Of a stretch of 64,000 nucleotides of DNA, positions 8,550 to 64,000 are shown piece by piece. A program made the translations under genes and the position numbers. The notes beneath the pieces are model-generated. The model was given only the letters and a program-made list of their open reading frames with translations. It was not told where the DNA came from and ran no database searches. Source of the stretch: a bacterium (GTDB lineage: Bacteria > Patescibacteriota > Patescibacteriia > 2-12-FULL-60-25); the NCBI GenBank assembly GCA_021796435.1, contig JAJYXM010000016.1:438625-502624 (forward strand), given 5' to 3'. Every line of letters starts with the position of its first letter. The stretch's first letter is position 1.

Positions 8550-11501
8550 GTGAAGCCTTTTAAGCCGTACCACAATTTTACGGCCTATCATCGTGAACCG
8601 GGAGGTCTGCGAAGGTTGGATTTTTTCGTCGACCGTATCGCCGCTTGGAGCGGCGGACGGCGGACCGCAGAGATAACCGTGTTGGATATCGGTTGCGGTA
8701 ACGGTAACATCAGTTTGCCTTTGGCTAAACTGGGCTATGAGGTCACGGGCGTGGATTATGATGCGGTCTCCATCAAGCGTGCCGAAGTGCAGGCGGAAGA
8801 GCTGGGCCTGGAAGCGAGATTCCTGGTCGGTTCATTCGATCGGGTATCGGGCAAGACATTCGACGTGGTCATCGCCAGCGAAGTCTTGGAACATCAGCAG
8901 GACCCGAAAGCTTTTTTGGAATCGGTCGCGCAGCGTCTTAACCCCGGAGGGTTGCTGTTGCTTTCCGTGCCGAACGGCGGAAGCCTGGAGGAATCCATCC
9001 GTTTCGTCACGACCCATACGCGTCTTGGGCGCAGACTGAAGACGTCGATCAAACGCCGCGTGTTGCATGAGGACGTCCAGACGTCGCAGGACCATCCGCA
9101 TTTCATCTTTTTCCATCTGAGGTCGTTGAGCGATCTGTTGCATGGAACGGGCTGGCGCGTGGATGCGTGGGGACAGGCCGCGGGGGTCTTCAAGGAATTC
9201 TATTATCTGTTAGGCCGTTTTTTCATGCGGCGCGGCAGCGGTACGTTCCATAGGCTGGACAGTTGGGATGCGAGATTCTGCAGCCGGCTGCCCATGGCGA
9301 TGGCTGATGGCTGGTTGATAGCGGCGACGCGCGAGTTGCATGACAAACCGTACATCGTCCACGTGGTGGATACGCTGAACGCGGGCGGTGCGGAACGCAT
9401 GTTGTTCGAATTGGTACGCGGTCTGCCGTCACGCGGATTCAGGGTCAAGGTCTTGGCGTTGTTGCGCGGCGGTCCGTTGGAGAAGCTTTTCAGGGAGGCT
9501 GGCGTAGAGGTGGAAGTCGGGCATTACCGTTGGCCTTGGGCGGCGGATACTTTTTTCCACGCGTATTCGTTCTTCAGGCGTGAAAGGCCGGATGTAGTCC
9601 ATACACACCTTTTCGATTCCGACATCTATGCGCGGGCAGCGGCATATTTCGCCGGTGTATCGATCATCCTGTGGACGGAACATAACGTGAACCTGCAGTT
9701 AGGTGCAGTCCGGCGTTGGCTTAAACATTGTACGAACCGTCTTGCGGCAAGGGGCGTCGCAGTCTCGAATACGGTGAAGGAGTATCTGCGCGTCTCCGAG
9801 GATACGCCGGAAAGTAAGGTCACGGTCATCCCGAACGGTCTGGATTTTTCCCGCATCGCCGTGCGGGAACGCCGGCAGTTCAAGGATGTCCCGGTGTTGT
9901 TGGCCGTCGGCCGACTTTCGCGCCAAAAAGGTTTCGATGTCTTATTGAAAGCATTGGCGCTGGTGAAGCACGAGTGGATCTTGCGCATCGCCGGTGAAGG
10001 CGAGGCAGAGGAAGAGCTTAAGCAACTCGCTAAGCGTCTGGACCTGGAATCGCGCGTCGAGTTTTTGGGTTTCAGCGACGATGTGCCTTCGCTGATGCAT
10101 GAATCCGATGTCTTCTGTTTCCCATCGCGTTGGGAAGGCCAGGGCTTGGCTGTGCTGGAAGCGGCGGCCATAGGCGTTCCGTTGATTGTCTCCGATCTGC
10201 CGGTGATACATGAGTTTTTGCGTCCTGATGAGGCGTTGTTCGTTGAGCCTTGCGATGTTCCGGCGTGGGCGAAGGCGATATCTACTTTGCTGGATAATCC
10301 GGATGAGGCATTACGTTATGCGCAGACTTGCGGGGACAGGTTGCGCCACGAACTTGATCTCGGGAAATTCGTCGATGCATATGCGGGGCTTTATCGGTCG
10401 GAACTTGAGCGAAAAAGAAAATCACGCCTGGTCTATCAGATTGTGCCGACGATGGATCCTGGAGGGGCGGAAAGGTTGGTGCTGGATTTGGCCGAGCGCA
10501 TGCCGGCTTATGGCTACGCGAGCAAAGTCGTGTCTTTTTATGGTGGCGGTAAATTGCAGCAGGAGGCGGAGAGACGCGGGATAGATCTGGCGGTCTTCGA
10601 AAGGCGTGGGCCTTTCAACGTAGTAGGCCTGTTCCGTCTGATCCGTCTCTTTTTGCGCGATAGGCCGCTCATCGTCCATACGCATCTTTTCGGCGCCGAT
10701 TTGTGGGGAAGGCTGGCGGCCAGGATGACTTTCCGCAAAATAGTCTTTTCGACCGAGCACAACGTGAACGTCGACGACAGCGGTACCAAGCGTTTCATCA
10801 AGTGGGCGTTGTCGCCTTGCACCGATGCTTTCGTCGCTGTCTCGTCCGCGGTGCAGCGATTCATGATGAAGGTGGAGCATCTGCCGGAGCGTAAGATTTT
10901 CGTCATCCCAAACGGCATCGCGATGCAGAAGGTGAAGCGCCGCGGTAACAGGAACCTCTCGGAAGTGCCCAGGATGTTGGCTGTGGGTCGTCTCACGGCC
11001 CAAAAGGATTTCGCGACCTTGATCAAAGCGGTCGGAAAATTGGAAAGTGATTTCAGACTGGATATCGTGGGCAGCGGGGAACTTGAACGAACATTGAAAG
11101 AGCAGGTATCCGAAGCCGGCTTGGACAAGAAGGTCCGGTTCTTGGGATACCGGGATGATGTCCCTGACCTTTTGGCTCAGGCCGATATCTTCATCTCGAC
11201 GGCGCGCTACGAGGGTTTGGCTTTGAGTTATGTGGAAGCCGCGGCGGCCGACGTGCCGCTCGTCTTGCCGGATATCCCGCAGTCCTATGAGGTGGCAGGT
11301 AAGGATGAAGCGGAATTCGCCGCCGTGGGGGATGAAGAAGCGTTCGTCCGTGCTTTGCGGAAAATCCTGGCCGATTATCCCTCGGCCTTGAGGCGTAGTG
11401 CGGTCTTGGGTTATCGCGTGCGGCAGAGCTGTTCGGTCGAAGAGATGGCGAAAAAATACGCCGGCCTATACGATCTGTTCCGTTACCTTAAAGGTGAATG
11501 A
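8550..11501 (+). CDS. Tri-domain fusion: N-terminal class I SAM methyltransferase followed by two tandem GT4 glycosyltransferase modules
   Basis: A GTG start is assumed, from the ORF track. MT motif I is VLDIGCGNGNISLPLAKLGYEVTGVDYD and the post-I region is DVVIASEVLEHQQDP. GT4 module 1 is HVVDTLNAGGAERMLFEL ... FPSRWEGQGLAVLEAAAIGVPLIVSD. GT4 module 2 is YQIVPTMDPGGAERLVLDL ... ARYEGLALSYVEAAAADVPLVLPD. Confidence 0.7.
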   Translation: MKPFKPYHNFTAYHREPGGLRRLDFFVDRIAAWSGGRRTAEITVLDIGCGNGNISLPLAKLGYEVTGVDYDAVSIKRAEVQAEELGLEARFLVGSFDRVSGKTFDVVIASEVLEHQQDPKAFLESVAQRLNPGGLLLLSVPNGGSLEESIRFVTTHTRLGRRLKTSIKRRVLHEDVQTSQDHPHFIFFHLRSLSDLLHGTGWRVDAWGQAAGVFKEFYYLLGRFFMRRGSGTFHRLDSWDARFCSRLPMAMADGWLIAATRELHDKPYIVHVVDTLNAGGAERMLFELVRGLPSRGFRVKVLALLRGGPLEKLFREAGVEVEVGHYRWPWAADTFFHAYSFFRRERPDVVHTHLFDSDIYARAAAYFAGVSIILWTEHNVNLQLGAVRRWLKHCTNRLAARGVAVSNTVKEYLRVSEDTPESKVTVIPNGLDFSRIAVRERRQFKDVPVLLAVGRLSRQKGFDVLLKALALVKHEWILRIAGEGEAEEELKQLAKRLDLESRVEFLGFSDDVPSLMHESDVFCFPSRWEGQGLAVLEAAAIGVPLIVSDLPVIHEFLRPDEALFVEPCDVPAWAKAISTLLDNPDEALRYAQTCGDRLRHELDLGKFVDAYAGLYRSELERKRKSRLVYQIVPTMDPGGAERLVLDLAERMPAYGYASKVVSFYGGGKLQQEAERRGIDLAVFERRGPFNVVGLFRLIRLFLRDRPLIVHTHLFGADLWGRLAARMTFRKIVFSTEHNVNVDDSGTKRFIKWALSPCTDAFVAVSSAVQRFMMKVEHLPERKIFVIPNGIAMQKVKRRGNRNLSEVPRMLAVGRLTAQKDFATLIKAVGKLESDFRLDIVGSGELERTLKEQVSEAGLDKKVRFLGYRDDVPDLLAQADIFISTARYEGLALSYVEAAAADVPLVLPDIPQSYEVAGKDEAEFAAVGDEEAFVRALRKILADYPSALRRSAVLGYRVRQSCSVEEMAKKYAGLYDLFRYLKGE

Positions 11502-11502
11502 T

Positions 11503-12723
11503 ATGCGCATACTCCATGTGAATAAATTCTTCGATTTCCGCGACGGTACGGATATCTACATCCAGCGTCTGATGGAGAAGCAGACGGCAGCCGGGCATGA
11601 AGTGCACATCTTGGCGACCTCCTCCGAGAAGAATGTCGAGACTCCGGACAGCCGGTTCTTCGTCAAGCGCCATGATTTTACGCAGAGCGAAGGCATTGAG
11701 AAAGACGCGAGCAAGGCGTTGAGTTTCTTGTGGAACAGCGAAGCCAAGGGCGCCATGCTTAAGGCCCTGGATGAATACAAGCCGGACATCGTACACCTAC
11801 ATAACATCTATCATCATCTGACGACGTCGATCCTGCAGCCCATCAGGCGACGACGTCTCCCATGCGTACAGACTTTGCATGATTATAAGTTGGCGTGCCC
11901 GAACTATAAGATGTTCACCGAAGGTGCGCCGTGTGAACGTTGCAAGGGCGGGCATTATCTGGAAGCGGTGCGACATCACTGTTTGGGCGCGTCGTTCGCG
12001 CCGAATTTTCTGGCGGCTTGCGAGATGGGCCTGACCAAGTTCAACCAATCCTACGAACGCACCGTGAAGTTCTTCATCTGTCCGACCGATTTCGTGGCCC
12101 GGAAGATGCGCGAGTGGGGAGAGCCGCCGTCAAAATTCAAGGTCATACATAATCCAGTCGATGAGTCATACGATCAGGTCGAAGGAACGGAAAATTTCAT
12201 CCTGTATATCGGTCGACTCTCGGAAGAGAAGGGAGTGGACGTTCTGATACGTGCCGCATCGCGTTTACCCGGCTTGGAGCTGAAGATCGCCGGAGCCGGT
12301 CCCCAGGAGAATAAGCTGAAGGAATTGGCTAAGTCGTTGAACGCGGAGAACGTATCTTTTTTGGGTTTTCTACGCCAAGAGCAGCTGAAGGAGTTGCGCA
12401 AGAATTCGCGCGTCATGGCGGTGCCTTCGGTGTGGTACGAGAATGCGCCGTTAGCCGTGCTGGAGGCGATGGCGCAAGGTTTGCCCGTCATCGCATCGCG
12501 TATAGGCGGTTTGCCGGAATTAGTGGATGAGGAAAATACCGGTTGGCTAGTTGCGCCACAGGACATAGACGCTTGGGCAGCGGCTTTGAAGATCGTGATG
12601 GAACAGGATCAGGGAGCATGGGAGAGGATGTCGCAAGCGGCGAAGCATCGTGCACGTGACATGTTCGGTTGGCAAAAACACTTAGCGGAATTGGAAATCG
12701 CCTACCATGAAGCTGGAGCATAA
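11503..12723 (+). CDS. GT4 glycosyltransferase with a Cys-x2-Cys...Cys-x2-Cys insert
   Basis: The start ATG at 11503 lies 1 nt after the upstream stop (the ORF track's 11398 start overlaps the upstream gene). Signature motifs are CPNYKMFTEGAPCERCKGG and VPSVWYENAPLAVLEAMAQGLPVIASRIGGLPELV. Confidence 0.8.
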   Translation: MRILHVNKFFDFRDGTDIYIQRLMEKQTAAGHEVHILATSSEKNVETPDSRFFVKRHDFTQSEGIEKDASKALSFLWNSEAKGAMLKALDEYKPDIVHLHNIYHHLTTSILQPIRRRRLPCVQTLHDYKLACPNYKMFTEGAPCERCKGGHYLEAVRHHCLGASFAPNFLAACEMGLTKFNQSYERTVKFFICPTDFVARKMREWGEPPSKFKVIHNPVDESYDQVEGTENFILYIGRLSEEKGVDVLIRAASRLPGLELKIAGAGPQENKLKELAKSLNAENVSFLGFLRQEQLKELRKNSRVMAVPSVWYENAPLAVLEAMAQGLPVIASRIGGLPELVDEENTGWLVAPQDIDAWAAALKIVMEQDQGAWERMSQAAKHRARDMFGWQKHLAELEIAYHEAGA

Positions 12724-12761: not shown

Positions 12762-14771
12762 ATGAGGCGCATCCTGATAGCGGTAATAGTCGCAACCTGC
12801 CTGGTGGGGCAGATGGCGTTTCCGGTCCAAGCTGCGCAAGCGCTGCCTGGGTCGCCGCCGATCATCAACCTGTATCTGGATTGGCAGATGAAAGAAGAGG
12901 ATCTTCCGGCCTTGGCGCGTTGGGATGTGGTTGTGTTGGACGCCAATCAACAGGCGCGTTATCCGGATAAGATATTGAAGTTGCGACAGCTGAATCCGAA
13001 AATCAAGATCTTGGCTTATCTGCCGACCGAGGAATATGCGGTCGCGCATTTCTCGGAACCCGCGAATTATCCTTTCGCCAGGCTGGGTACGGCGATCAAG
13101 GACGATTGGTGGGTCAATGGTCCAACCGGAGCTAAAGTTTATTTCTGGCCGGGCCAACCCATGCTGAATGTTACGGACCAGGGCCAATCGGGCGAGAAGT
13201 GGAACGAATTTTTTCCGCGTTTCATCCGCGACGAGATCATGTCGAGCGGGATGTGGGATGGGGTATTCCTGGATAACGTTTTCGACGGCATTTCGCATTT
13301 CGCGAAGTCGAGCTATGACCTGGACCGGAACGGTAAAGCGGACGATAAGGCGACGGCGGACAAGGCATGGAATGACGGCATGCAGAAGATGCTGCGCCTG
13401 ATCAAGCAATATAACCCTAATGCGATCCTGTTAGGGAATGGCGGCGCAGGTTATGCCGATAAGCTGAACGGCGTGATGTTCGAGCATTTTCCGAGCTGGA
13501 GCTGGGGACCGAATTTCCAGGAAGTGCGGGATACGTTGGCGAAAAACATGACGCCGGCATATACGGCCATCAACGTTAATACCGACAACCGTCCGGAGCA
13601 GACCAATTATCGTCTGATGCGTTTCGGTTTGAGCAGCGCTTTGGCTGCCGGAAGTTCCTATTCCTTCGATCAGGGCGATTACAGCCACAACGTGGTCTGG
13701 TGGTATGACGAATATGAGGTCCCTTTGGGCCAACCTAAGAGCGGGCCGCGTATCCTGGCTGCAGCGACCGGGCAGGGATCCGTGCCGGCAGTGTGGATGC
13801 GCAGTTATGACAACGGCCTAGTCCTGGTCAACAGCACTACGAAGGCGCAAAAAGTCAGCCTCCCAGGGATATTCGAGAAGGTGCATGGTACGCAGGACAA
13901 GAAAACGAATGATGGTTCGGTGGTGGATAGCGTGATGCTTGGGGCACAGGATGGATTATTGCTCATCAAGCGTGTGGCCATAAATGACATCATCGGGACT
14001 TCTTTTGTGAATGGGGCGTTCATCAGGACTTATGACATGAGCGGCAAGCAGACGCAGAATGGTTTTTTTGCGCAGCGCGGCGATGCGCCGAGCGGAGCTA
14101 CGGTATTCGTGGCGGATGTCGATCAGGATGGTTTTGATGATGTGGTTTCCGCGGCTAAAGGGGCAGTGACCGTGAGTTTCGGCGGAACGCGGAAACCAGT
14201 GACCTTCCGACCATACGGTTCGGCTTATACGGGCACGCTTTATCTGTCCGTCGGAAATGCGAATCGCGATGCGGCGCTGGAAATCGTGGTCGGGCGCGAA
14301 GGCAAACCACCGGAGACGCGCGTCTTCACTTGGAGCGGCAAGGAGCTGGCGCGTTGGTCAGCGTATATGCCGCTGTTTTCGGGTGGCGTGCGTGTCGCGA
14401 TGGGTGATCTGGATGGTGATGGCATGCGAGAAATCGTGACAGCGGCTGGACCCGGCGGAGGACCGCATGTGCGTATCTGGAAGACGGACGGCAAGGTCTG
14501 GGGCGGATCTTTCTTTGCCTTCGATCCGAACGAAGCCGGGGGAATATCGATAGCAGTGGGCGATGTCGACAAAGACGGTAAAGACGAGATCATCGTAGGC
14601 TCAGGGCGCGGAGCTAAGCCCAGAGTGCGCGTTTTCGACGCGCGCGGTAATCTTAAGCGAGAAATAGTTCTGGGCGAACAGCCGGTGACTAACGGTATCG
14701 ATGTAGGTGCGGCTGACCTGAACGGCGACGGTATCGATGAGATACTGGTGGGAGGGATGCCCGCGATCTAA
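12762..14771 (+). CDS. Secreted protein with an N-terminal putative glycoside-hydrolase-like (GHL15-like) domain and C-terminal FG-GAP/VCBS beta-propeller repeats
   Basis: Signal peptide MRRILIAVIVATCLVGQMAFPVQAAQA. Four FG-GAP-like units: DVDQDGFDDVVSA, GDLDGDGMREIVTAAGPGGGPHVRIW, GDVDKDGKDEIIVGSGRGAKPRVRVF, ADLNGDGIDEILVGG. The N-terminal resemblance to the hypothetical GH family GHL15 is from memory and tentative. Confidence 0.55.
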   Translation: MRRILIAVIVATCLVGQMAFPVQAAQALPGSPPIINLYLDWQMKEEDLPALARWDVVVLDANQQARYPDKILKLRQLNPKIKILAYLPTEEYAVAHFSEPANYPFARLGTAIKDDWWVNGPTGAKVYFWPGQPMLNVTDQGQSGEKWNEFFPRFIRDEIMSSGMWDGVFLDNVFDGISHFAKSSYDLDRNGKADDKATADKAWNDGMQKMLRLIKQYNPNAILLGNGGAGYADKLNGVMFEHFPSWSWGPNFQEVRDTLAKNMTPAYTAINVNTDNRPEQTNYRLMRFGLSSALAAGSSYSFDQGDYSHNVVWWYDEYEVPLGQPKSGPRILAAATGQGSVPAVWMRSYDNGLVLVNSTTKAQKVSLPGIFEKVHGTQDKKTNDGSVVDSVMLGAQDGLLLIKRVAINDIIGTSFVNGAFIRTYDMSGKQTQNGFFAQRGDAPSGATVFVADVDQDGFDDVVSAAKGAVTVSFGGTRKPVTFRPYGSAYTGTLYLSVGNANRDAALEIVVGREGKPPETRVFTWSGKELARWSAYMPLFSGGVRVAMGDLDGDGMREIVTAAGPGGGPHVRIWKTDGKVWGGSFFAFDPNEAGGISIAVGDVDKDGKDEIIVGSGRGAKPRVRVFDARGNLKREIVLGEQPVTNGIDVGAADLNGDGIDEILVGGMPAI

Positions 14772-14784
14772 CGAACGACATAAT

Positions 14785-22955: not shown

Positions 22956-22988
22956 TCCTGAAAGCTACGGCTGAAGGATCGACGCGAT

Positions 22989-37301: not shown

Positions 37302-37311
37302 TTTTCCTGAT

Positions 37312-49750: not shown

Positions 49751-49756
49751 GAATTT

Positions 49757-50449: not shown

Positions 50450-50459
50450 CCGTTAATAT

Positions 50460-53618: not shown

Positions 53619-53630
53619 AAGGGAATCGTC

Positions 53631-54734: not shown

Positions 54735-54855
54735 TCCTTCCTCAATAATCGCCTGTCGGTGCTCACCGGCAGGCGATTTCCATTTTCATACCTTGGCTTG
54801 ACCAGAATCCAATTTTGGACTAAGGTCTGACATCCCTTTCACAAGGAGTAGTGGA

Positions 54856-55920: not shown

Positions 55921-56018
55921 ATCTTCAGGCGTTCCTCTTCTTGCCTTAGCCCGCACTCTTGTCTTAGAGATTGCGGGCTTTCGTATTACCAAAATTTAGG
56001 CTATCGTGTCGATTGACT

Positions 56019-56447: not shown

Positions 56448-56529
56448 GGTTCGATTCTTGAGGTCGTTTTTCCTGTGCCGCCTGTTGACTTTTGGGCGGA
56501 AAAAAAGTAGTTTAGGGAGGCAAAATATC

Positions 56530-57723: not shown

Positions 57724-57728
57724 TATAT

Positions 57729-58684: not shown

Positions 58685-59392
58685 ATGAACGATTTGAAGG
58701 TATTGGCCGTGATCACGGCGCGTGGAGGCTCAAAAGGAATACCACGCAAGAACATAAAGGATCTGGCGGGAAAACCGCTGATAGCCTGGACCATAGAGGC
58801 GGCGCAGGGGAGTAAACTCTTGACCGACTATCTTGTATCGACGGATGATCAGGAGATCGCGGACATCTCGCGGCAGTGCGGTGCACCTGTGCCGTTCATG
58901 CGTCCGGCTGAACTGGCGACAGATACGGCGACGAGTATGGGCGTGGTGCAGCATGCCTTGAAGTGGCAAGAGGAAAATGAGGGTAAGACATATGACGCAT
59001 TAATGATCCTGCAGCCGACGAGTCCGTTGCGTTCTTCGCAGGATATCGACGGTTGTATAGAGAAGATGGCTGAGACGGATTGTGATTCTGTCATGAGCAT
59101 GGTCAAACTGACCGACTTCGCGGCCAAGAAACTCAAGGTGCTGGATGGTGACAAGATAAGACCGTGGATGGAGGACGAGGGTAGAGAAAGCAGCTCGCGC
59201 CAGGCTTTGGGTGACGTGTACAAACGTAATTGCGCCGTATATCTGACTAAGACGGAAAGGATCATGGAAGGGGATCTGTTCGGTCATGATTCGAGGGCTT
59301 ATGTCATGCCTGAAGATGTCTCTACGGACATCAATACTCCTTTGGATTTTGAGTTACTGGATTTTTTGATGCGAAGAAAGTTGATGAAATAA
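58685..59392 (+). CDS. neuA: N-acylneuraminate cytidylyltransferase (CMP-nonulosonic acid synthetase)
   Basis: LAVITARGGSKGIPRKNIKDLAGKPLIAWTIEAA and ILQPTSPLR, the classic CMP-NeuAc synthetase motifs. Confidence 0.85.
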   Translation: MNDLKVLAVITARGGSKGIPRKNIKDLAGKPLIAWTIEAAQGSKLLTDYLVSTDDQEIADISRQCGAPVPFMRPAELATDTATSMGVVQHALKWQEENEGKTYDALMILQPTSPLRSSQDIDGCIEKMAETDCDSVMSMVKLTDFAAKKLKVLDGDKIRPWMEDEGRESSSRQALGDVYKRNCAVYLTKTERIMEGDLFGHDSRAYVMPEDVSTDINTPLDFELLDFLMRRKLMK

Positions 59393-59395
59393 ACT

Positions 59396-61237
59396 ATGTG
59401 CGGGATTGCCGGGTCATTCGGACGAGGTGCTGACTCGGCCGTTGTCAGACGCATGATAGATGCGTTGGCGCATCGCGGTCCTGACGGCGAGGGCTTGTTG
59501 GAACTGTCCAACGGTACGATGGCGCATCGTAGATTATCCATCATCGACCTGTCTGACGCAGGAAAACAACCGATGGTCTCGCATGACGGTCGTTTCGCCA
59601 TAACCTTCAACGGAGAGATCTATAACTACAAGGAATTGCGTGAAGAGCTGATCGGTTATCCTTTTTCTTCCCAGACGGATACGGAGGTGATCTTGGCCGC
59701 ATGGGAAAAATGGGGCGAGGCCTGTTTGGATCGGATGCTCGGTATGTTCGCCTTCGCGATCATCGATAAGACCACGGGCGAGGTGACTGTCGTACGCGAC
59801 CGATTGGGCATCAAGCCGCTTTTTTATGCTTTGCAGGACGGTAAACTGTTCTTCGCTTCAGAGATCAAAGCTTTGTTGGCGGCGGGTGTCAGGGTCGAAC
59901 CGAACGAAAAAATCATCTCGCACTATCTTCTGCGGGGATATTATGATCATTCAGAGGAGACGTTCTTCAAGAATATATTGATCTTGCGCGGTGGGCATCT
60001 GTTGAGGTTCTGCGAGGGCGAGCTAGAAACCAAACGCTGGTGGTATTTGCCCGAACGGGTGGAGGGTATCGCTTCCTTATCTGACGATGAGCTGGTGGAA
60101 AGTTTCCGCGCATTGCTAGACGATAGCCTGCGCCTGCATCTGCGCAGCGACGTCCCGGTCGGGGTGAATCTCTCGAGCGGAATCGATTCGTTGAGCCTGT
60201 TCTTCGAGCTTAACCGGATAATGGACCTCAAGTCCTTGAACATCTTCTCCATGGGTTTCGAGGAGAAGGCGTATGATGAGACGGAGGACATAATGCATCT
60301 GTCGCATGATTTCGGCGTACCTTTCCATCGGACAGCGATAGAACCAGGGGTATTCAACCGGACGATCGACCAGACGGTAGCCGCCCTCGACCAGCCATTC
60401 GGAGGAGTATCGACGATGGGTTATTACGATCTGATGTCGTCCCATCGCAAGAATGGCGTGATCGTCGTGCTGGAAGGTCAAGGCGTGGATGAGATCCTGG
60501 CAGGATATCGGTATTTCTACGGCCCTTATTATCGCGATCTCGTCAGACAGGGGCGTTTGGGTGAGATAGGGGCCGAGATAGGCCGCGCCGCCCAAGATAA
60601 CAATCCACTCCATCTCTTGCAGTCGGCACTGGCTTTCGGCAAGACCTGGCGCGACGCCGGAAAGTCGGCTTTCCAGGATGGGACTAAGTTTTTGCGTTTC
60701 GATTGCCTCAAGGAGTCATGGGTGGCAAAAGCCGGCAAGTATGCCGCGCCTGAATTCGAGCGGCCTTTCCCGGATCATCTGCGGAATGCGCTTTATAGGG
60801 ATACGATATATACCAAATTGCCTCGTGTCTTGCGCTTCAATGACCATATATCGATGGCGCATGGACTGGAGTTGCGCGTCCCATATCTGGATCATCGCAT
60901 AGTCGAGTTCGCATTCTGTCTTGAGGATCGGTGGAAGATACGCGGAGGAAAAAGCAAATTCATGTTACGTGAGGCCATGCGCGGTGTCGTGCCGGAAGAT
61001 CTGCGCACGCGGCAAAAGCGCCCGCAGTCTTCACCGCAGACGACGTGGTTCAAGACACGACTGAAGGATGATGTATTGCGTGAATTGTCCTCAAGAGCCT
61101 TGAAGGAATTGCCTATGGTAGATGCGGAAAAGGCTCAAGAGAGCTTCCGTCGTTTCGTCGGGAACGAGAAGGATAATAATTCGTTTTTCTACTGGCAGCT
61201 GATTAATCTTGCTAGATGGTATAAAATGTACTTCTGA
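59396..61237 (+). CDS. asnB: Asparagine synthase (glutamine-hydrolysing) family amidotransferase, paralogue 3, immediately downstream of neuA
   Basis: MCGIAGSF, GATase-2 domain, PP-loop LSSGIDSLSL. It lies 3 nt after the neuA stop. Confidence 0.85.
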   Translation: MCGIAGSFGRGADSAVVRRMIDALAHRGPDGEGLLELSNGTMAHRRLSIIDLSDAGKQPMVSHDGRFAITFNGEIYNYKELREELIGYPFSSQTDTEVILAAWEKWGEACLDRMLGMFAFAIIDKTTGEVTVVRDRLGIKPLFYALQDGKLFFASEIKALLAAGVRVEPNEKIISHYLLRGYYDHSEETFFKNILILRGGHLLRFCEGELETKRWWYLPERVEGIASLSDDELVESFRALLDDSLRLHLRSDVPVGVNLSSGIDSLSLFFELNRIMDLKSLNIFSMGFEEKAYDETEDIMHLSHDFGVPFHRTAIEPGVFNRTIDQTVAALDQPFGGVSTMGYYDLMSSHRKNGVIVVLEGQGVDEILAGYRYFYGPYYRDLVRQGRLGEIGAEIGRAAQDNNPLHLLQSALAFGKTWRDAGKSAFQDGTKFLRFDCLKESWVAKAGKYAAPEFERPFPDHLRNALYRDTIYTKLPRVLRFNDHISMAHGLELRVPYLDHRIVEFAFCLEDRWKIRGGKSKFMLREAMRGVVPEDLRTRQKRPQSSPQTTWFKTRLKDDVLRELSSRALKELPMVDAEKAQESFRRFVGNEKDNNSFFYWQLINLARWYKMYF

Positions 61238-61405
61238 GGAGACTTTTAATTCTGGCGCATGACTGCGTCAAAGCCTCCGCTGCTTGCTCTGCGTACGCTC
61301 CAGTACGCGCCGCGCCCGCCATGCAAGCCTTGCTTGCAAGGCGTTGCGGGCGGGTCGCTCCGCTGCTCGGCGTTTCCTTGTCCTGCATCCAGAATTAAAA
61401 GTCTC
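61238..61405. repeat. Hairpin-forming intergenic element, family 2 (copy F) with an extra internal GC hairpin
   Basis: Perfect 17-bp terminal inverted repeat gagacttttaattctgg / ccagaattaaaagtctc. It shares ctcgctctgcgtacgctccagtacgcgccgcg and cgctccgctgctcggcgtttcct with copy E. An inserted palindrome cgcccgccatgcaagccttgcttgcaaggcgttgcgggcg is unique to this copy. It starts at the asnB stop. Confidence 0.75.
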
Positions 61406-61432
61406 TTGTTTCGAAGGCTTGATACAACAGAG

Positions 61433-62320
61433 ATGAAAAAAATAAAATCATCAAAATCGTACCAATGTCCGGTCTGCGGCAGCGAGTCTTCTGAAACCCT
61501 AGACAGCCGACGCCTTAACGGTCACGAACATAAGAACCTGATCTGCGGATCCTGTGGCATGGTTTGGGTCTCGACAAGGCAGCCAGCAAAAACCTATGAC
61601 AAGTTTTATCGCAGCGGATATGCGGTCGGCGTTTATGGCTTGAAAGACGGGAAAGAGGGTCTGGATGAAGTATTGGAATGGCGCGTGCGACGGAGTAAGG
61701 AGAAACTGGCAAATTTCGGTTCCGCTTGGGCACGCGGGTCGAGGGTCCTGGAGATCGGCAGCGGTATTGGAGCATTGTTGAAGTATCTCAAAGATGAGTA
61801 TCGTTGTAAGGTTTGGGGCATCGAGCCGGAACCTGCTTTTGCCGAACTAAGCCAGAAAGAATTGGGGCTAGATGTTTTTGCCGGCACGTTCGAACAATGG
61901 ACGAAAAATCATCCTAAAGGTTTTCCTCTTAAGTACGACCGGATAGTGCTGGATCAGGTCTTGGAACATATCCTGGAGCCCGTGGATTTTTTACGACGAG
62001 TCGCGGAAAGGCTTGAGTCTGACGGGAAGATATTCATCAGCGTACCTAACGTAACGGCGCCGAAGGACAGGCAAAAGGATTTTTTCATCTTCGAACACGT
62101 GTCATCCTTCTCGCCCTTCGCCCTTTGGCTGCTTTTGGCGCGATGCGGATTTAAGATCGTGAGGATGCATGCCGAAAAGCCAGGATCGCTTCAAGTCATG
62201 GCGATGAAGTTCGGTTCACCCGAAAAAATGATCGATGCCGATGAGGTAGGAAAGCCGCAAGACAAATCCATGATCCTCAGACGCTTTAAAGCATTGGAGA
62301 AACATGGGCGGAATAAATAG
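61433..62320 (+). CDS. Class I SAM-dependent methyltransferase with an N-terminal Cys4 zinc-ribbon
   Basis: The start was chosen at MKKIKSSKSYQCPVCGSE...CGSCG (the ORF track's 61259 start lies inside the repeat element). MT motif I is RVLEIGSGIGALLKYLKDEYRCKVWGIEPEP. Confidence 0.65.
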   Translation: MKKIKSSKSYQCPVCGSESSETLDSRRLNGHEHKNLICGSCGMVWVSTRQPAKTYDKFYRSGYAVGVYGLKDGKEGLDEVLEWRVRRSKEKLANFGSAWARGSRVLEIGSGIGALLKYLKDEYRCKVWGIEPEPAFAELSQKELGLDVFAGTFEQWTKNHPKGFPLKYDRIVLDQVLEHILEPVDFLRRVAERLESDGKIFISVPNVTAPKDRQKDFFIFEHVSSFSPFALWLLLARCGFKIVRMHAEKPGSLQVMAMKFGSPEKMIDADEVGKPQDKSMILRRFKALEKHGRNK

Positions 62321-63734
62321 GGCGATCCAGGCATGGCGAACTGCATCGAAGGATCGTAAGTTTTGGGTCGCTCTGTCTTTGATCGCCGTTTTCGGTTTCG
62401 TGTGGGGTCGTCAAAATCTGCTGGATAGTCCGCGTCCATGGTTCGATGAGGGAATATATCTTCAGGTCGCCAAGAACGTCGCGCAGGAAGGGCTTTGGGC
62501 CTTGCGGGTTTCGCCGCATCAGACGGTGGGTTTGGAGTACATCACGGTCGGATTTCCGGTCATATTGCCGGTAGCATTCTCGATCAGGATATTCGGAGCG
62601 TCGCTTTTGGCGGCACGGAGCGTGATGTTGGCATGGATCGTTTTGGGTATATTGCTTGCTGGTTATTTGGGTTATCGCATGTACGGCAGGAAGGCAGGTT
62701 TGGCCAGTGCATCATTCCTGGCAAGTTTCGGACCATGGTATGCGAACGGGAAGAACGTGATGGGTGAGGTGCCCGGTCTGGTGTTGATGATGGCATCTCT
62801 GATTTTTTTGACGAGGATCGAGAAAGGAGAAAGGCATTGGTGGGATTTTTTTTGGCTCACGACTTTCGCCTGTCTGGCTGCCGTCAGCAAACCATCATTC
62901 CTGGTCTTGGGTCCGGCGATGGTCTTGGCGATAGCGGTTCTGCTATGGCGCGGCTTCAGGCCTACTTGGTCGATCGCGGCGGCTATAATCGTACCGATAG
63001 TTTCGGTGTTCGCCGTCTGGATGTGGACCCAGTTCGGAGGGTTCCCGGGGAGCGAGGTCTTGCATCACTACCTGAATCCTTATGGATTGGATGAGGTGGG
63101 CGCAGTCATGCGCGATAATTTTTTCGGCATGCTGAGCCATGTGACGCCATTGCATCTTTTGTTGATGCTGGGTTTGATAGTTTGTGCGATTTACATACGT
63201 GGTCGGAAAAGGATCAAAGCGATCGAATATGTTTTGATGACGGTGATCCTGATGACCTTGCTCAGCTATCTGCGTACAGCGGGTTGGTATAGGTATTTTT
63301 TCGTGGCGCAGATCTCGTGTTTCTTGCTTCTGCCGTTGGTCCCTATGGTATTTTCCGGAAAACTCCATCATGCGAAGCAAGCATGGCTCATGCCTGTCTT
63401 CGTCATTTTCTTCATCGCGATGAACCTGGTCGCTCTGATCCGTGATCCGGCACCGATGTATGGGCAGGGTTGGCGGAAAATAGAGGATTGGCTCAAGTCG
63501 GATAAAGCTTCAGGCAGCATCATGTTCGTGAACGTACCGGAAGCCGTATATTTTTTCAGAGGGAAAGAATACAGCCAGTTTTTGAGGATCACAGACAAGT
63601 TGAGTTTAGGCGATCTGCGTGGCGGAACTGATATGATAGTGGCGCCGAATCCGCTTCCGGATAAGCTGATCCTGCCTTACGATTACCATCAATCCGAACA
63701 GCTAGGTAGCTACGCTATTTGGCGGAAGGACTAA
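62304..63734 (+). CDS. GT-C-fold glycosyltransferase of the PMT / ArnT (GT39/GT83-like) family
   Basis: About 11 TM helices. A first-loop acidic motif WFDEGIYLQVAKNV (a DE-like catalytic loop) and the overall topology are typical of the dolichyl/undecaprenyl-phosphate-sugar:protein or lipid glycosyltransferases. Confidence 0.55.
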   Translation: MGGINRAIQAWRTASKDRKFWVALSLIAVFGFVWGRQNLLDSPRPWFDEGIYLQVAKNVAQEGLWALRVSPHQTVGLEYITVGFPVILPVAFSIRIFGASLLAARSVMLAWIVLGILLAGYLGYRMYGRKAGLASASFLASFGPWYANGKNVMGEVPGLVLMMASLIFLTRIEKGERHWWDFFWLTTFACLAAVSKPSFLVLGPAMVLAIAVLLWRGFRPTWSIAAAIIVPIVSVFAVWMWTQFGGFPGSEVLHHYLNPYGLDEVGAVMRDNFFGMLSHVTPLHLLLMLGLIVCAIYIRGRKRIKAIEYVLMTVILMTLLSYLRTAGWYRYFFVAQISCFLLLPLVPMVFSGKLHHAKQAWLMPVFVIFFIAMNLVALIRDPAPMYGQGWRKIEDWLKSDKASGSIMFVNVPEAVYFFRGKEYSQFLRITDKLSLGDLRGGTDMIVAPNPLPDKLILPYDYHQSEQLGSYAIWRKD

Positions 63735-63789
63735 GCGAACGTGCTCGACAGCTCATCGGCGATAGCTTATGATGTGGCATATCTGAAAT

Positions 63790-64000
63790 ATGGATAATGT
63801 CGAGTTTTTCCTGGAAAAATTCTCTTCTGTTTACCCCTATTCGCATTGCGTCTGGAGGATAGATGAGGCTGCAGCTTTGGCGGACAACCTGCCGTTCAAG
63901 GGCGTGACGTTCGATCTAGGTTGCGGTGACGGAAGCTACATGAAGATCATGCTGGAGAGGGTCGGCAAGCCGGAAAGGTTGATTGGTCTGGACCCGCAGG
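63790..64000 (+). CDS. Class I SAM-dependent methyltransferase, N-terminal fragment (continues past the window end)
   Basis: MDNVEFFLEKF ... GVTFDLGCGDGSYMKIMLERVGKPERLIGLDPQ (motif I). The frame is open to the right edge. Confidence 0.45.
   Translation, partial: MDNVEFFLEKFSSVYPYSHCVWRIDEAAALADNLPFKGVTFDLGCGDGSYMKIMLERVGKPERLIGLDPQ

Follow-up and report, generated by a model that had tools for sequence, protein, structure and literature searches.

The window, i.e. the 64,000-nucleotide stretch of DNA that was analysed, holds most of a glycan island of at least 67 kb (from gene content and profile searches), in which about 45 glycan genes, arranged in translationally coupled operons, surround the gene of a 1300-aa secreted surface protein. 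Two statements about this island are supported: it encodes glycan assembly on a lipid carrier, of the Wzx type and using Wzy_C-family transferases plus a GT-C enzyme, and it is tied physically and evolutionarily to the 1300-aa protein. In its organisation it resembles, by analogy, the loci with which Gram-positive bacteria glycosylate their S-layers (slg loci). The best reading, to which about an even chance is given, is an slg-type locus for O-glycosylation of the surface protein with a methylated, amidated, sialic-acid-like glycan. A literature search found no description of an slg-like locus for the phylum Patescibacteria. The host is an uncultivated, ultra-small, Uhrbacteria-like member of the Patescibacteria (CPR), and its contig carrying the exact sequence of the 1300-aa protein measures 1,522,766 bp.

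Gene inventory of the island

The inventory was produced by Pfam and NCBIfam profile searches on every long ORF between 8550 and 64000. An initial annotation, made from the letters alone, had drawn the island from 8550 to the window end, with almost every gene glycan-related. The island continues for at least 10 kb past 64000 (three more methyltransferases, a GT2, a CDP-alcohol phosphotransferase, two nucleotidyltransferases, a kinase and an AroB-like cyclase), and most of its genes are glycan-related, the exceptions being the HTH_17, ECF sigma and DUF5667 anti-sigma-like genes, the 1300-aa protein and two unannotated proteins. All six ATGA overlaps that had been listed (29061, 38385, 42772, 46234, 47586 and 48974) are as placed. 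The upstream core, the regulatory genes and the surface protein are as follows.

7041-8471, +: Wzy_C-family membrane protein without TPR (Pfam Wzy_C 41.9 bits, cut-off 31.7)
8550-11501, +: WsaE-like fusion of a SAM-methyltransferase (Methyltransf_23, aa 27-205) and two GT4 units (two Glycos_transf_1/Glyco_transf_4 pairs)
11503-12723, +: GT4, translationally coupled to the fusion (Pfam, overlap sequence; 51-83% in relatives)
12762-14771, +: secreted GHL15 (TIM-barrel glycan hydrolase-like) with FG-GAP repeats (GHL15 108.6 bits, N-terminal signal-like helix)
14737-16452, +: conserved membrane-anchored protein (one TM at 74-92; orthologues 29-62%)
16478-16756, -: small DNA-binding protein of the HTH_17 type, its gene divergent from that of sigma (38 bits, cut-off 27)
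17086-17679, +: ECF-type sigma-70 factor (Pfam Sigma70_r2 and r4_2)
17642-18769, +: single-pass membrane protein with DUF5667 (36 bits; TM at 72-90), anti-sigma-like partner
19053-22955, +: 1300-aa secreted surface protein (signal peptide, anchoring-type module of about 200 aa, about nine cohesin/Ig-like β-sandwich domains)
19158-19757, +: its N-terminal module (aa 36-235), a mobile, usually terminal domain without a Pfam model
22981-23219, +: three hairpins 3' of its stop codon (repeat search)

The Wzy_C protein at 7041-8471, a candidate polymerase or second ligase, has at least nine hydrophobic segments and is the first gene of the conserved core, with orthologues (43-48%) at the same position in L005, L007 and L009. 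Two Wzy-like proteins had been announced; that at 23460-25850 carries Wzy_C and TPR domains, and this second one lies just upstream of the island start then proposed. The best NCBIfam match of the fusion at 8550-11501 is the PEP-CTERM/XrtA glycosyltransferase TIGR03088, below cut-off, and the protein at 14737-16452 has no Pfam match above threshold. The HTH_17 gene, also called in L094, is accompanied by an 11/12 promoter-like site on the minus strand (16793-16764) and a terminator-like hairpin at 16488-16517; the DUF5667 gene overlaps the sigma gene.

Downstream of the surface protein gene lies the Wzy_C protein with TPR, together with its partners.

23460-25850, +: Wzy_C (WaaL-fold) domain (69.5 bits), 13th TM helix and C-terminal TPR superhelix
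25886-27100, -: GT4, conserved partner of Wzy_C-TPR (Pfam; orthologues 43-74% in 8/8 relatives)
27175-29064, +: AsnB-type glutamine amidotransferase no. 1, most like those of EPS loci (Asn_synthase and GATase_7, N-terminal MCGI)
29061-30176, +: GT4, ATGA-coupled to AsnB1 (Pfam)
30130-31269, +: unannotated protein with an HTDFVPHN motif (read in the sequence)

The AlphaFold2 model of Wzy_C-TPR (pLDDT 87.2, pTM 0.82) finds WaaL (7TPG) as its best PDB match, followed by OGT-type TPRs. Hydropathy supports a TPR domain outside the cell (12 WaaL-like helices and the 13th). The protein is a candidate glycan ligase or O-oligosaccharyltransferase, Pfam Wzy_C membership making no separation between ligase, polymerase and O-OTase, and the sole solved relative being a lipid A-core ligase. 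AsnB1 matches TIGR03108 over its full length (536 bits, below the cut-off of 816.9). The protein at 30130-31269 has no Pfam or NCBIfam match, and its motif might be a kinase/APH-like catalytic loop.

The middle operons contain the flippase and most of the methyltransferases (MTs).

31357-32592, -: GT4 (Pfam)
32671-33837, -: NAD-dependent sugar epimerase/dehydratase (Epimerase 147 bits; NCBIfam matches sub-threshold only)
33668-34438, +: NUDIX hydrolase (profile search)
34431-35057, +: HAD phosphatase (profile search)
35140-36264 and 36252-37301, +: GT4 pair (Pfam; orthologues in L002, L005, L009)
37231-38388, +: non-hydrolysing UDP-GlcNAc 2-epimerase, WecB, UDP-ManNAc (TIGR00236 289.8 bits, cut-off 210)
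38385-39410, +: GT4, ATGA-coupled to WecB (Pfam)
39413-41272, +: AsnB-type amidotransferase no. 2 (Pfam/NCBIfam, starts MCGI)
41276-41818, +: NUDIX hydrolase no. 2 (missing in the 88% relative)
41930-42772, +: MT1 (profile search)
42772-43575, +: MT2 (profile search)
43580-44401, +: GT2 (Pfam)
44370-45104, +: MT3 (profile search)
45101-46237, +: GT4 (Pfam)
46234-47589, +: Wzx-type flippase (Polysacc_synt 59 bits, cut-off 28.2; called as 451 aa in L001)
47586-48977, +: TagB-fold GT-B, Glyphos_transf/TagB-like (Pfam Glyphos_transf 41 bits)
48974-51299, +: MT trio, MT4, MT5 and MT6 (profile search)

The Polysacc_synt match confirms the predicted Wzx, and the proposed Wzx/Wzy-type lipid-carrier pathway is supported by the flippase, the Wzy_C-family proteins and the GT-C. 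The TagB-fold protein had passed for one more ordinary glycosyltransferase (GT); its best curated match is the NCBIfam family BFO_1060 (67.7 bits), with TIGR04396 also matched, both below cut-off. BFO_1060 is an orthologue of the Tannerella Pse/Leg transferases (PMC5420450), and the enzyme is a candidate CMP-nonulosonate transferase, near the Tannerella nonulosonate-transferase family by sequence. Its relatives adjoin NeuB/C/A in 16/40 metagenome (groundwater) loci.

The last part of the window contains a nonulosonate module.

51461-52594, +: NeuB-family nonulosonate synthase with SAF domain (Pfam NeuB 233 bits)
52677-53618, +: EamA transporter (profile search)
53631-54734, +: divergent MT (profile search)
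54856-55920, +: unannotated 354-aa cytoplasmic protein (sub-threshold Glyco_transf_4 match only)
55971-56447, +: cupin (profile search)
56458-57723, +: hydrolysing UDP-GlcNAc 2-epimerase, NeuC/LegG type (TIGR03568 354.7 bits, cut-off 235.9)
57720-58679, +: D-2-hydroxyacid (phosphoglycerate-type) dehydrogenase (Pfam; NCBIfam PGDH 227.8 bits, below cut-off)
58685-59392, +: CMP-nonulosonate synthetase, NeuA/PseF-like (CTP_transf_3 84.5 bits; PseF 164.5 bits, below the cut-off of 205.7)
59396-61237, +: AsnB-type amidotransferase no. 3, directly 3' of NeuA (same position in L092, L093)
61259-62320, +: Zn-ribbon and methyltransferase (profile search)
62304-63734, +: PMT_2-type GT-C membrane glycosyltransferase (31.1 bits, cut-off 26.1)
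63790-64000, +: 5' part of one more methyltransferase gene (whole in L010, product 266 aa)

With NeuC, NeuB and a NeuA-like enzyme the CMP-nonulosonate pathway is confirmed. NeuB gives NCBIfam scores of 258 (NeuB) and 208 (PseI), both below cut-off, and its best PDB matches are PseI 8H2C and NeuB 1XUU (about 1e-38). The hydroxyacid dehydrogenase is a recurrent member of the module, adjoining NeuB/C/A in 17/40 loci. The block 52677-55920 has a high GC3 (0.71-0.83) and is kept in relatives, inverted in one. The PMT-like GT-C also stands, PMT_2 being above cut-off; the protein has at least eight TM segments and a weak WsfD match, and two genes 3' of it, past the window-end MT, lies a polyprenyl-P-sugar-synthase-like GT2 (L010 12284-12976).

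As to the other enzyme counts, the three AsnB-like amidotransferases (27175, 39413 and 59396, each starting MCGI) and the ten SAM-MT domains (fusion N-terminus, 41930, 42772, 44370, 48974, 49757, 50460, 53631, 61259 and a partial one at about 63790) agree with the initial annotation, as does a tandem MT trio with two paralogues (MT4 and MT6 are 57% identical). For the "at least 14 GTs", 12 proteins with 13 GT units score above Pfam gathering scores, and 14 is reached only with the 354-aa protein or the Wzy_C proteins. None of the MTs reaches the curated cut-off of a named rRNA, tRNA, quinone or other non-sugar family; they are generic class-I MTs, placed in the operons by context, and sugars are their putative substrates.

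Conservation of the locus and properties of the surface protein

The order sigma factor, DUF5667 protein, 1300-aa protein, Wzy_C-TPR and minus-strand GT4 is found in 8/8 species representatives, with at most one unmatched ORF interposed, and no relative with the 1300-aa protein but lacking the island core genes was found among these 8 species. The clustering is not due to chance, because identical gene order recurs in independent genomes. The ECF sigma/anti-sigma pair lies directly 5' of the 1300-aa gene in all eight (sigma orthologues 52-95%; DUF5667 likewise kept in 8/8), and Wzy_C-TPR, next to this gene across relatives at 60-88% identity, is directly 3' of it in 6/8, one unmatched ORF standing between them in 2/8. 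Where the contig reaches, the same relatives have AsnB downstream and Wzy_C, GT4-GT4, GT4 and GHL15 upstream (GHL15 kept in 7/8). AsnB1 is present in 6/8; of the two others, at least one has a contig that ends before its position. Just 3' of AsnB1, more distant relatives have a gene content unlike that of the window, and the GT4 of 29061-30176 is missing there. The best-120 homologue lists of the 1300-aa protein and Wzy_C-TPR have 34 contigs (matched by size) in common. L002 and L092 join up on JAVHLR010000001.1, and the island is therefore collinear throughout in the relative with an 88%-identical 1300-aa protein; the distal module is also kept in a relative at 66% identity. The expected co-occurrence in related genomes was found in 8/8 for the giant protein and the island core genes.

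Full-length homologues of the 1300-aa protein number more than 1600, every one of them labelled Patescibacteria or Uhrbacteria. The protein may be an S-layer or major envelope protein and is a candidate acceptor of the glycan. Serine and threonine make up 22% of its residues, and it has 4 Cys (0.3%), where none had been reported. Its gene is monocistronic, with its own 283-nt leader and the three downstream hairpins (arms of 18 nt; of 21 nt with A and T runs at the sides; and of 24 nt, perfect, the 24-mer occurring once only in the window), which probably serve as transcriptional insulation. Structure analysis gives a β-sandwich array for the body, and fold searches returned adhesin- and cohesin-like domains.

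In a phmmer search of 1.84e9 representatives, the N-terminal module was found in 4652 proteins (E<=1e-3), and among the best 150 of these it usually follows the signal peptide directly or forms the very C-terminal end; it has no Pfam match even at E<=1. In a comparison of two strains with 98-100% identity in the flanking genes, the 1300-aa protein reaches only 85%, nucleotide identity dropping to 0.71-0.85 over aa 200-1100, whereas the anchor end is 100% identical. Its dS of 0.45 and dN/dS of 0.20 compare with 0.05-0.08 and 0.03-0.05, respectively, for the flanks. The body is a recombination hot spot between strains, and its variation between near-identical flanks speaks for surface exposure of the protein.

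At long range the 1300-aa protein is the best conserved of the locus (60-71% vs 27-63% for neighbour genes). Between species, S-layer proteins usually show little conservation, and ECF-sigma control is unusual for a constitutive S-layer; both the sigma control and the long-range conservation speak against the slg reading. So do the results of searches over the window and the next 10 kb (74 kb), in which no priming phosphoglycosyltransferase (Bac_transf or MraY/WecA type), Wzz or ABC exporter was found, and of the fold searches, which matched no known S-layer fold.

Comparison with slg loci and proposed pathway

The S-layer glycosylation parallel drawn by the initial annotation is closer than could be seen from the letters alone. 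WsaE consists of an N-terminal MT and two GT domains, WsfB and PglL combine Wzy_C with a C-terminal TPR, WsfA is homologous to Asn synthases, and WsfD and WsfH form a branching pair (PMC2943079). The MT-GT4-GT4 fusion, Wzy_C-TPR, the AsnB homologue and the GT-C with its GT2 are their respective likenesses in the island. In Geobacillus the S-layer gene is adjacent and monocistronic, as the 1300-aa gene is here, and overlapping stop and start codons are a further slg parallel (PMC2943079).

In the proposed pathway, the GT4 and GT2 enzymes would assemble a glycan on polyprenyl-phosphate at the cytoplasmic face; no gene for a priming enzyme was found in the 74 kb. WecB would supply UDP-ManNAc, and NeuC, NeuB and NeuA a CMP-activated sialic-acid-like nonulosonate, probably modified by AsnB3, the hydroxyacid dehydrogenase, the cupin and methyltransferases, and added by the TagB-fold transferase. 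Further AsnB enzymes may perform carboxyl amidation or amidino-group formation, and the roughly ten methyltransferases would modify the chain or cap it, with a WsaE-like role for the MT-GT4-GT4 fusion. The lipid-linked glycan would then be flipped by Wzx, perhaps polymerised by the TPR-less Wzy_C protein, and transferred en bloc by Wzy_C-TPR to Ser/Thr/Tyr residues, those of the 1300-aa protein and perhaps of others as well. Side sugars may be added outside the membrane from polyprenyl-P-monosaccharide by way of PMT_2 and the downstream GT2, and the sigma/anti-sigma pair would couple expression to the envelope state.

Alternative explanations

The main rival, possible though clearly less probable, is a secondary cell-wall polymer or lipoglycan (teichoic-acid-like or SCWP-like), polymerised and ligated to lipid or peptidoglycan by the two Wzy_C proteins; the 1300-aa protein would be unglycosylated and attached by its N-terminal module to the polymer, in the way that Bacillus SLH domains bind pyruvylated SCWP. 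This mobile, usually terminal module occurs in about 4650 representative proteins, which come in many lengths, so it needs a common conserved ligand, and it is C-terminal on a second protein of the same locus in L004. The TagB fold in the island and the lipid ligation performed by the one solved Wzy_C relative point the same way. The secreted, core-conserved GHL15 hydrolase, WecB with its ManNAc, typical of wall-polymer linkage units, and the downstream CDP-alcohol phosphotransferase, two cytidylyltransferase-like enzymes, kinase and AroB-like cyclase, which suggest a phospho-polyol or phospho-cyclitol component, fit a wall polymer equally well and to that extent count against the slg reading. 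However, the 74 kb contain no LCP-family ligase, TagO/TagA, TagGH or TagD; the TagB-fold protein finds its best score in the nonulosonate-transferase family rather than in TagB/F; glycan transferases fused to a TPR (WsfB, PglL, OGT) are associated with protein substrates; and the gene-by-gene match to slg loci is extensive. Wall polymer and O-glycosylation are also compatible with each other.

Within O-glycosylation, a general PglL-type system whose main targets are other envelope proteins, e.g. type IV pilins, with the 1300-aa gene adjacent through shared regulation, is judged improbable. Wzy_C-TPR paralogues (25-29% identity) do stand by NeuB/C/A in 11/40 groundwater contigs with no 1300-aa homologue within 10 kb, and PglL and the Tannerella system, both known Wzy_C O-OTases, show promiscuity (PMC2943079, PMC5420450), but the orthologous Wzy_C-TPR keeps its place beside the 1300-aa gene throughout the eight species, and the window has no pilin gene. 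More improbable still is a juxtaposition of two or more independent pathways with their own products, a core EPS-type one around the surface protein and a separate nonulosonate/methylation/cyclitol one. Duplicated classes (two Wzy_C, two UDP-GlcNAc 2-epimerases, three AsnB), several transcription units with divergent genes and the hairpin at 16488-16517, the variable content after AsnB1, differences in G+C among sub-blocks and a nonulosonate module that travels separately on other contigs would agree with it. A single pathway is favoured over this juxtaposition by the presence of one Wzx only in 74 kb, by the end-to-end collinearity in the 88% relative with the distal block kept in the 66% relative, and by translational coupling across module borders, from GT4 to Wzx, the TagB-like gene and MT4.

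Gene content and extent of the locus

All long ORFs of the window were translated, and about 50 of them were scanned against Pfam and NCBIfam. From 7.0 kb to the window end, nearly all genes are on the + strand and most are glycan-related by these profiles. Contig L010, found by exact look-up of the last complete window gene, extends 10 kb past the window and carries the island further, so that the locus amounts to at least 67 kb (at least 4.4% of the 1.52-Mb contig, of 1,522,766 bp, in which the 1300-aa protein was found by identical sequence), with 13 methyltransferase (MT) domains in all. Towards the upstream side, the one contig listed for the gene there has a length of 2 kb.

Gene order of the locus in the window and in contig L010 (GT, glycosyltransferase; - marks the minus strand)
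7041-8471, Wzy_C protein, first gene in order
8550-11501, fusion of an MT with two GT4 units (Pfam), then GT4, a secreted GHL15+FG-GAP protein and a membrane protein
16478-16756 (-), small HTH_17 gene (92 aa, excisionase/MerR-like), diverging from the ECF sigma gene
19053-22955 (+), 1300-aa surface protein, preceded by the ECF sigma factor and then a DUF5667 single-pass protein
23460-25850, Wzy_C+TPR protein, then GT4 (-), AsnB1, GT4, an unannotated protein, GT4 (-) and an SDR epimerase/dehydratase (-)
following the SDR gene, NUDIX, HAD, two GT4, WecB, GT4, AsnB2, NUDIX
following the second NUDIX, MT, MT, GT2, MT, GT4, Wzx, TagB-fold GT (47586-48977), MT trio (48974-51299)
following the MT trio, NeuB, EamA, MT, an unannotated 354-aa protein, cupin, NeuC
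following NeuC, 2-hydroxyacid dehydrogenase, NeuA-like cytidylyltransferase, AsnB3, Zn-ribbon-MT, PMT_2 GT-C (62304-63734), start of another MT
L010 12284-21284, rest of the cut MT, 230-aa GT2, CDP-alcohol phosphotransferase, Zn-ADH, nucleotidyltransferase fused to an AroB-like sugar-phosphate cyclase (292.5 bits against a cut-off of 305), APH-fold kinase, inositol-phosphate-cytidylyltransferase-like enzyme, three more MTs

Where the initial annotation had counted at least 14 GTs, the profiles gave 12 GT proteins with 13 GT units. The six ATGA overlaps that it reported were all found, each at its named site, and the paralogues that it saw in the MT trio are 57% identical (MT4 and MT6). It had also raised the possibility that the MTs might be non-sugar enzymes; in the profile search no MT reached any curated NCBIfam cut-off, and an assignment as misplaced rRNA, tRNA or quinone enzymes was rejected on this ground. 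A reading of the AsnB genes as lasso-peptide/macrolactam cyclases was likewise discarded, since the generic Asn-synthase model outscores those models and the Cys at the N-terminus is preserved. The window was also scanned for tRNAs and against Rfam, with no match to either.

The CDP-alcohol phosphotransferase of the extension is archaetidylinositol-phosphate-synthase-like, and the extension genes taken together suggest a CDP-activated cyclitol or polyol phosphate component. The unannotated 379-aa protein encoded at 30130-31269 has no profile match and contains the motif HTDFVPHN, which is like the catalytic loop of APH/choline-kinase-fold kinases.

The 1300-aa surface protein and its N-terminal module

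The 1300-aa protein carries a signal peptide and 4 Cys, where the initial annotation had read it as Cys-free. The AlphaFold2 model of residues 31-1230 (mean pLDDT 87.4, pTM 0.46) begins with an N-terminal domain of mixed α/β type, some 200 aa long, and continues with roughly nine β-sandwich domains, the strand content being 50% past the N-terminal domain. The N-terminal module (aa 36-235, window 19158-19757) has no Pfam match even at E ≤ 1, and it matches 4652 proteins in a library of 1.84 billion representatives, 1273 of them at E ≤ 1e-30. In the best 150 of these 4652 matches its usual place is either immediately behind the signal peptide, the proteins being 186-1550 aa long, or the very C-terminal end, as at 2054-2246 in a protein of 2248 aa, and a few copies are internal or duplicated; one relative's locus (L004) encodes a second module-bearing protein. 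The module thus placed behaves like the wall-anchoring modules SLH and CWB2, and by this analogy it would be a candidate anchoring module of Patescibacteria without earlier description.

The gene has a 283-nt leader and is followed past its stop codon by three hairpins. Two of them (22981-23020, and 23077-23119 with flanking A and T runs) precede a perfect 24-nt inverted repeat, unique in the window, whose arms (23131-23154 and 23196-23219) are separated by a 41-nt spacer and lie between the surface-protein gene and the Wzy_C+TPR gene. This hairpin set may act as a stack of terminators or have a regulatory role, and by its sequence features the surface-protein gene looks transcriptionally separate. 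Further upstream, the HTH_17 gene has an 11/12 sigma-70-like promoter match at 16793-16764, and is kept in the sister strain (L094 7427-7699).

Comparison with this sister strain, a contig from another run (L094), gave a measure of variation within the species. The flanking genes are 98-100% identical at the protein level (nucleotide identity 0.98-1.00), whereas the 1300-aa protein is only 85% identical. Residues 1-100 and 1101-1200 are identical in both strains, and nucleotide identity falls to 0.71-0.85 over window positions 19550-22530 (aa ~200-1100; L094 10500-13480). The dS of the gene is 0.45, locally up to 1.45, against 0.05-0.08 in the GT4, GHL15 and Wzy_C+TPR genes, and its dN/dS is 0.20 against 0.03-0.05 in the same three genes. 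So high a dS argues for an imported allele, i.e. recombination, and not only for faster change in place; the comparison points to allelic replacement, a putative recombination hot spot, confined to the presumably exposed part of the protein. The combination of a constant anchor and an exchanged exposed body would correspond, by analogy, to the pattern of surface antigens and S-layer cassettes. Being secreted, built as a β-sandwich array and hypervariable between strains, the 1300-aa protein is a candidate S-layer protein. The DUF5667 gene also has a raised dS (0.34) between the two strains.

Conservation and synteny

More than 1600 full-length homologues of the 1300-aa protein were found (55-88% identity, 1260-1390 aa), and their label, wherever one is given, is Patescibacteria or Candidatus Uhrbacteria. 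A scan of one genome per species returned eight loci with this protein, whose ORFs were compared with the window proteins by BLAST. The order sigma factor, DUF5667 protein, 1300-aa protein, Wzy_C+TPR protein, GT4 (-) was found in all eight; whether the island and the giant protein occur together in related genomes was a check proposed in the initial annotation. In L006 and L007 one unmatched ORF separates the surface-protein gene from the Wzy_C+TPR gene. Where the contigs reach, AsnB1, the SDR enzyme and GT4s follow downstream, and Wzy_C, GT4-GT4, GT4, GHL15 and the membrane protein without family precede upstream. Across these distances no other product of the locus is conserved as well as the 1300-aa protein; its identity in L003, for instance, is 71%, compared with 34-63% in its neighbours. 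In addition, 34 contigs are apparently common to the top-120 homologue lists of the 1300-aa and Wzy_C+TPR proteins, contigs having been matched by size as a proxy.

A homologue search with the TagB-fold gene yielded orthologues on contigs of three relatives. On JAVHLR010000001.1 the stretch carrying it (892592-913983) abuts the stretch carrying the surface-protein gene (914099-937980), which makes the entire island collinear in this relative, with its 88% identical 1300-aa protein. The distal module is also present, with one sub-block inverted, in a relative of 66% identity (L093). The island is a lineage trait and not a recent acquisition. A strain-specific, horizontally acquired island, as hinted by steps in G+C content, was rejected in view of this collinearity and of the distal block in the 66% relative.

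Two side observations were made on the relatives' loci. The unmatched ORF of L006 (7040-7810) and L007 (13812-14639), the two most distant relatives, encodes 257-276 aa and has no window counterpart, the corresponding gap in the window being 505 bp of non-coding DNA. Three public MAG records titled "uncultured Gammaproteobacteria bacterium" (L003, L005, L009) carry a Patescibacteria-type locus with full synteny and a 1300-aa protein of 63-70% identity; these titles look like mislabels.

Wzy_C proteins, flippase and GT-C enzyme

The 796-aa Wzy_C+TPR protein has a Wzy_C domain (69.5 bits) and TPR repeats in Pfam. The best solved match of its AlphaFold2 model (pLDDT 87.2, pTM 0.82) is the WaaL O-antigen ligase 7TPG (Foldseek E 1e-5, TM 0.62 on the WaaL length, sequence identity 17%), and the next matches are TPR superhelices, including O-GlcNAc transferase. 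By hydropathy and the list of helices, 12 WaaL-like helices are followed by a linker rich in Lys (429-453) and then by a 13th helix (454-473). With the WaaL topology and this additional helix, the TPR domain of about 320 aa is predicted to lie outside the membrane. Both Wzy-like proteins of the initial annotation were found; the second one (7041-8471) sits just upstream of the start that had been assigned to the island. It belongs to the Wzy_C family, which groups polymerases and ligases alike, and has no NCBIfam match; PDB sequence searches with this protein, the 354-aa protein and the PMT_2 enzyme gave no match.

The flippase is of the Wzx type (Polysacc_synt, 59 bits against a cut-off of 28.2), and no ABC transporter domains were found in the window or the next 10 kb, Wzx standing there instead of Wzm/Wzt. 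No Wzz/PCP chain-length regulator was detected in these 74 kb. No Bac_transf or Glycos_transf_4 (MraY/WecA) match was obtained with the window ORFs and the called genes of the next 10 kb; as none lies in these 74 kb, the priming transferase may sit elsewhere in the 1.52-Mb genome. The PMT_2 GT-C enzyme scores above the Pfam cut-off, and two genes downstream of it is the 230-aa GT2, whose best NCBIfam matches are PgfS, ArnC and dolichyl-P-hexose transferases (DPM-type), all below the curated cut-offs. No GtrA-like small flippase was seen in the window or the next 10 kb.

Nonulosonate module and TagB-fold transferase

NeuC passes the equivalog TIGR03568 (354.7 bits against a cut-off of 235.9), a model which we take to cover LegG as well, and WecB passes its own cut-off. 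The NeuB and CTP_transf_3 proteins score above the Pfam gathering thresholds and reach no NCBIfam equivalog (NeuB 258 against 399.65, PseI 208 against 340, PseF 164.5 against 205.7); PDB matches of the NeuB-family protein to PseI and NeuB are equally good. Neither an aminotransferase nor an acetyltransferase was found in the window or the extension, nor were PseB/C/H/G, LegB/C/H or DegT, and the only SDR enzyme has weak LegB/RmlB matches far below cut-off. A pseudaminic or legionaminic acid pathway was thus rejected as the default, the set of dehydratase, aminotransferase and acetyltransferase being missing from these sequences. With no set specific to Pse or Leg, a Neu- or Kdn-type sugar becomes the default and is the more likely product judging by the gene content. 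The many enzymes adjoining the nonulosonate genes are candidate modifying enzymes of this sugar.

The best curated match of the TagB-fold gene is the BFO_1060 family (NF046086, 67.7 bits against a cut-off of 200). A simple pattern scan of its product found DxD motifs only, and no D/E-D/E-G or HP sialyltransferase motif. The profile score and the neighbourhood point to a fold and context related to those of the BFO_1060/Tanf_01245 family, and not to membership. The gene also matches Pfam Glyphos_transf (41 against a threshold of 22.1), from whose name a TagF/teichoic-acid function could be read. No TagD was found in the window or the extension, the cytidylyltransferase-like genes of the extension being of non-TagD type. 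As the Tannerella family is the best match and relatives of the gene stand beside NeuB/C/A on 16 of 40 contigs, this function was left as a minor possibility.

A metagenome scan with NeuB produced 80 loci, and neighbours were counted in the 40 loci of at least 9 kb: NeuC accompanied NeuB in 31, NeuA in 27, a hydroxyacid dehydrogenase in 17, a TagB-fold gene in 16 and a Wzy_C+TPR paralogue in 11. The nonulosonate module and its link to Wzy_C+TPR enzymes therefore recur. In this collection (L012-L091, from groundwater and other metagenomes), the module of NeuB/NeuC/NeuA with a phosphoglycerate-type dehydrogenase, often together with a TagB-fold GT, occurs on many small-cell-fraction contigs and often directly adjoins a Wzy_C+TPR paralogue with 25-29% identity to that of the window.

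The sub-block at 52677-55920 (EamA, a divergent MT and the 354-aa protein) has a GC3 of 0.71-0.83, against about 0.62 in its neighbours, and together with the cupin gene it is inverted as a unit in L093 (13084-17843). The 354-aa protein, which has no Pfam, NCBIfam or PDB sequence match, is kept in the nonulosonate module of the three close relatives examined (3/3).

Comparison with known systems

The closest likeness is to S-layer glycosylation (slg) loci, as reviewed for Geobacillus stearothermophilus NRS 2004/3a and Paenibacillus alvei CCM 2051T (PMC2943079). There, S-layer genes are monocistronic, in Geobacillus also adjacent to the cluster, and slg stop and start codons overlap; WsaE has an N-terminal methyltransferase and two GT domains, WsfB, like PglL, is a Wzy_C protein with a C-terminal TPR, WsfA is an asparagine-synthase homologue, WsfC combines a glycerophosphotransferase domain with ManNAc transferase activity, and WsfD and WsfH use a second lipid carrier to attach a branch (PMC2943079). 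The island similarly has a monocistronic-type surface-protein gene adjoining glycan genes, and packed GT operons (12 GT proteins) with overlapping stop and start codons. The MT+GT+GT protein at 8550-11501 resembles WsaE, AsnB resembles WsfA, the glycerophosphotransferase-fold domain with ManNAc resembles WsfC, and the GT-C and GT2, a putative branching pair, resemble WsfD/WsfH. By domain architecture the Wzy_C+TPR protein, directly 3' of the surface-protein gene, is the candidate protein transferase corresponding to WsfB. Unlike slg loci, the island has Wzx and not Wzm/Wzt, no WsaP/WsfP-type priming enzyme in 74 kb and no rml genes. It is three to four times larger, with 13 MTs, 3 AsnB and nonulosonate and CDP-alcohol/cyclitol modules, has an ECF sigma/anti-sigma pair and an unrelated, non-SLH anchoring-type module, and belongs to another phylum.

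In Tannerella forsythia the S-layer O-glycan bears a terminal Pse5Am7Gra or Leg derivative added by Tanf_01245/BFO_1060, members of the BFO_1060 family being required for adding these Pse or Leg derivatives (PMC5420450). The island likewise places a TagB-fold GT near this family beside a NeuB/NeuA-type module, with ManNAc-type acceptor chemistry via WecB, and an amidotransferase and glycerate-type dehydrogenase beside the CMP-synthetase match the amidino and glyceroyl decorations of the Tannerella sugar. However, the TagB-fold score is far below the family cut-off, Pse/Leg genes are lacking and the host is monoderm.

With WaaL (7TPG), PglL and PilO, the Wzy_C+TPR protein has in common a Wzy_C domain above the Pfam threshold and the WaaL fold, with a C-terminal TPR as in PglL and WsfB; it differs from WaaL by its length (796 aa), 13th helix and TPR domain, in a monoderm host without a lipid A-core acceptor. 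The island resembles Wzx/Wzy O-antigen and capsule pathways in uniting Wzx, a candidate Wzy_C polymerase, many GTs and sugar-nucleotide genes in one locus, but it has no priming PGT, Wzz/PCP or Wza, there is no outer membrane, and its MT and amidotransferase numbers are well above usual. Among the Campylobacter flagellin nonulosonate genes, the AsnB-like PseA gives the acetamidino form and Cj1295 the di-O-methylglyceroyl form of Pse (in part PMC3068675). The AsnB-type amidotransferase and methyl/glycerate-type chemistry beside NeuB/NeuA are comparable, whereas Maf-type transferases and flagellin are absent from the island and attachment is predicted to proceed via a lipid carrier and Wzy_C, not in the cytoplasm. 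The PMT_2 GT-C and the polyprenyl-P-sugar-synthase-like GT2 recall the pairs GtrB/GtrC, ArnC/ArnT, WsfH/WsfD and PgfS/PgfM, although all matches are below curated cut-offs and no GtrA-type flippase was seen.

Interpretation of the locus

A surface-protein O-glycosylation system, as proposed in the initial annotation, is the reading best supported by synteny, domain architecture and analogy, and we give it about an even chance, with the 1300-aa protein as the candidate glycan acceptor. The main rival is a wall- or lipid-linked glycopolymer that the 1300-aa protein would bind through its N-terminal module. The anchoring-like placement of this module is compatible with such a polymer, and the slg-like architecture around the Wzy_C+TPR gene with O-glycosylation; we regard the glycopolymer as the less likely of the two readings, which are not exclusive. 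As a tentative and rather less than probable extension of O-glycosylation, the 1300-aa protein may serve a large Uhrbacteria-type clade of Patescibacteria as its S-layer or main envelope protein. A module not described before and common to thousands of CPR surface proteins would hold it on the wall, and the dedicated Wzy_C+TPR enzyme would O-glycosylate it with a glycan that is amidated, methylated several times and capped by a sialic-acid-like sugar.

All enzyme families of the locus are already known, and it represents no new category. The locus is of interest for its phylum, with a nearly blank surface biology, for being so large and so conserved in a reduced genome, and for a widespread unannotated module and an allele-swapping surface protein. 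CPR bacteria (Patescibacteria) form a large part of bacterial diversity; their genomes are tiny, and attachment to other cells is their presumed way of life. To our knowledge, their surface molecules are essentially unknown. Within the literature collection searched, nothing relevant was found for CPR/Patescibacteria on S-layer proteins, glycosylation, nonulosonic acids or O-antigen ligases. If correct, the extended reading would give the Candidate Phyla Radiation its first protein-glycosylation system and its first identified S-layer component, and the exchange of alleles of the exposed body between strains would suggest pressure from phages or from host recognition. The share of the contig devoted to one surface-glycan locus argues that the coat is central to the organism's biology. 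The locus supplies candidates for a conserved major surface protein, for its likely glycan ligase, for a pathway to a sialic-acid-like sugar and for an anchoring module that is widespread and unannotated. They could be of use in metaproteomics and glycoproteomics, for interpreting cryo-ET data, for sorting cells with lectins or antibodies, and in work on host attachment and phage defence in uncultivated bacteria. Should the 1300-aa protein not be glycosylated, the locus would still be a lead to a wall polymer bound by CPR surface proteins.

Sequence upstream of the island

Directly upstream of the island is a G+C-rich block (1941-6896; GC 0.60-0.63, GC3 0.75-0.86), which encodes a 526-aa lipoprotein-like protein without family and a lipoprotein of 812 aa built from thrombospondin type 3 (calcium-binding) repeats. 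An antisense ORF of equal length, probably a composition artefact, lies opposite the 812-aa lipoprotein gene. The 180-aa protein encoded at 1941-2483 has a 130-aa C-terminal domain in common with the 812-aa repeat protein (37% identity).
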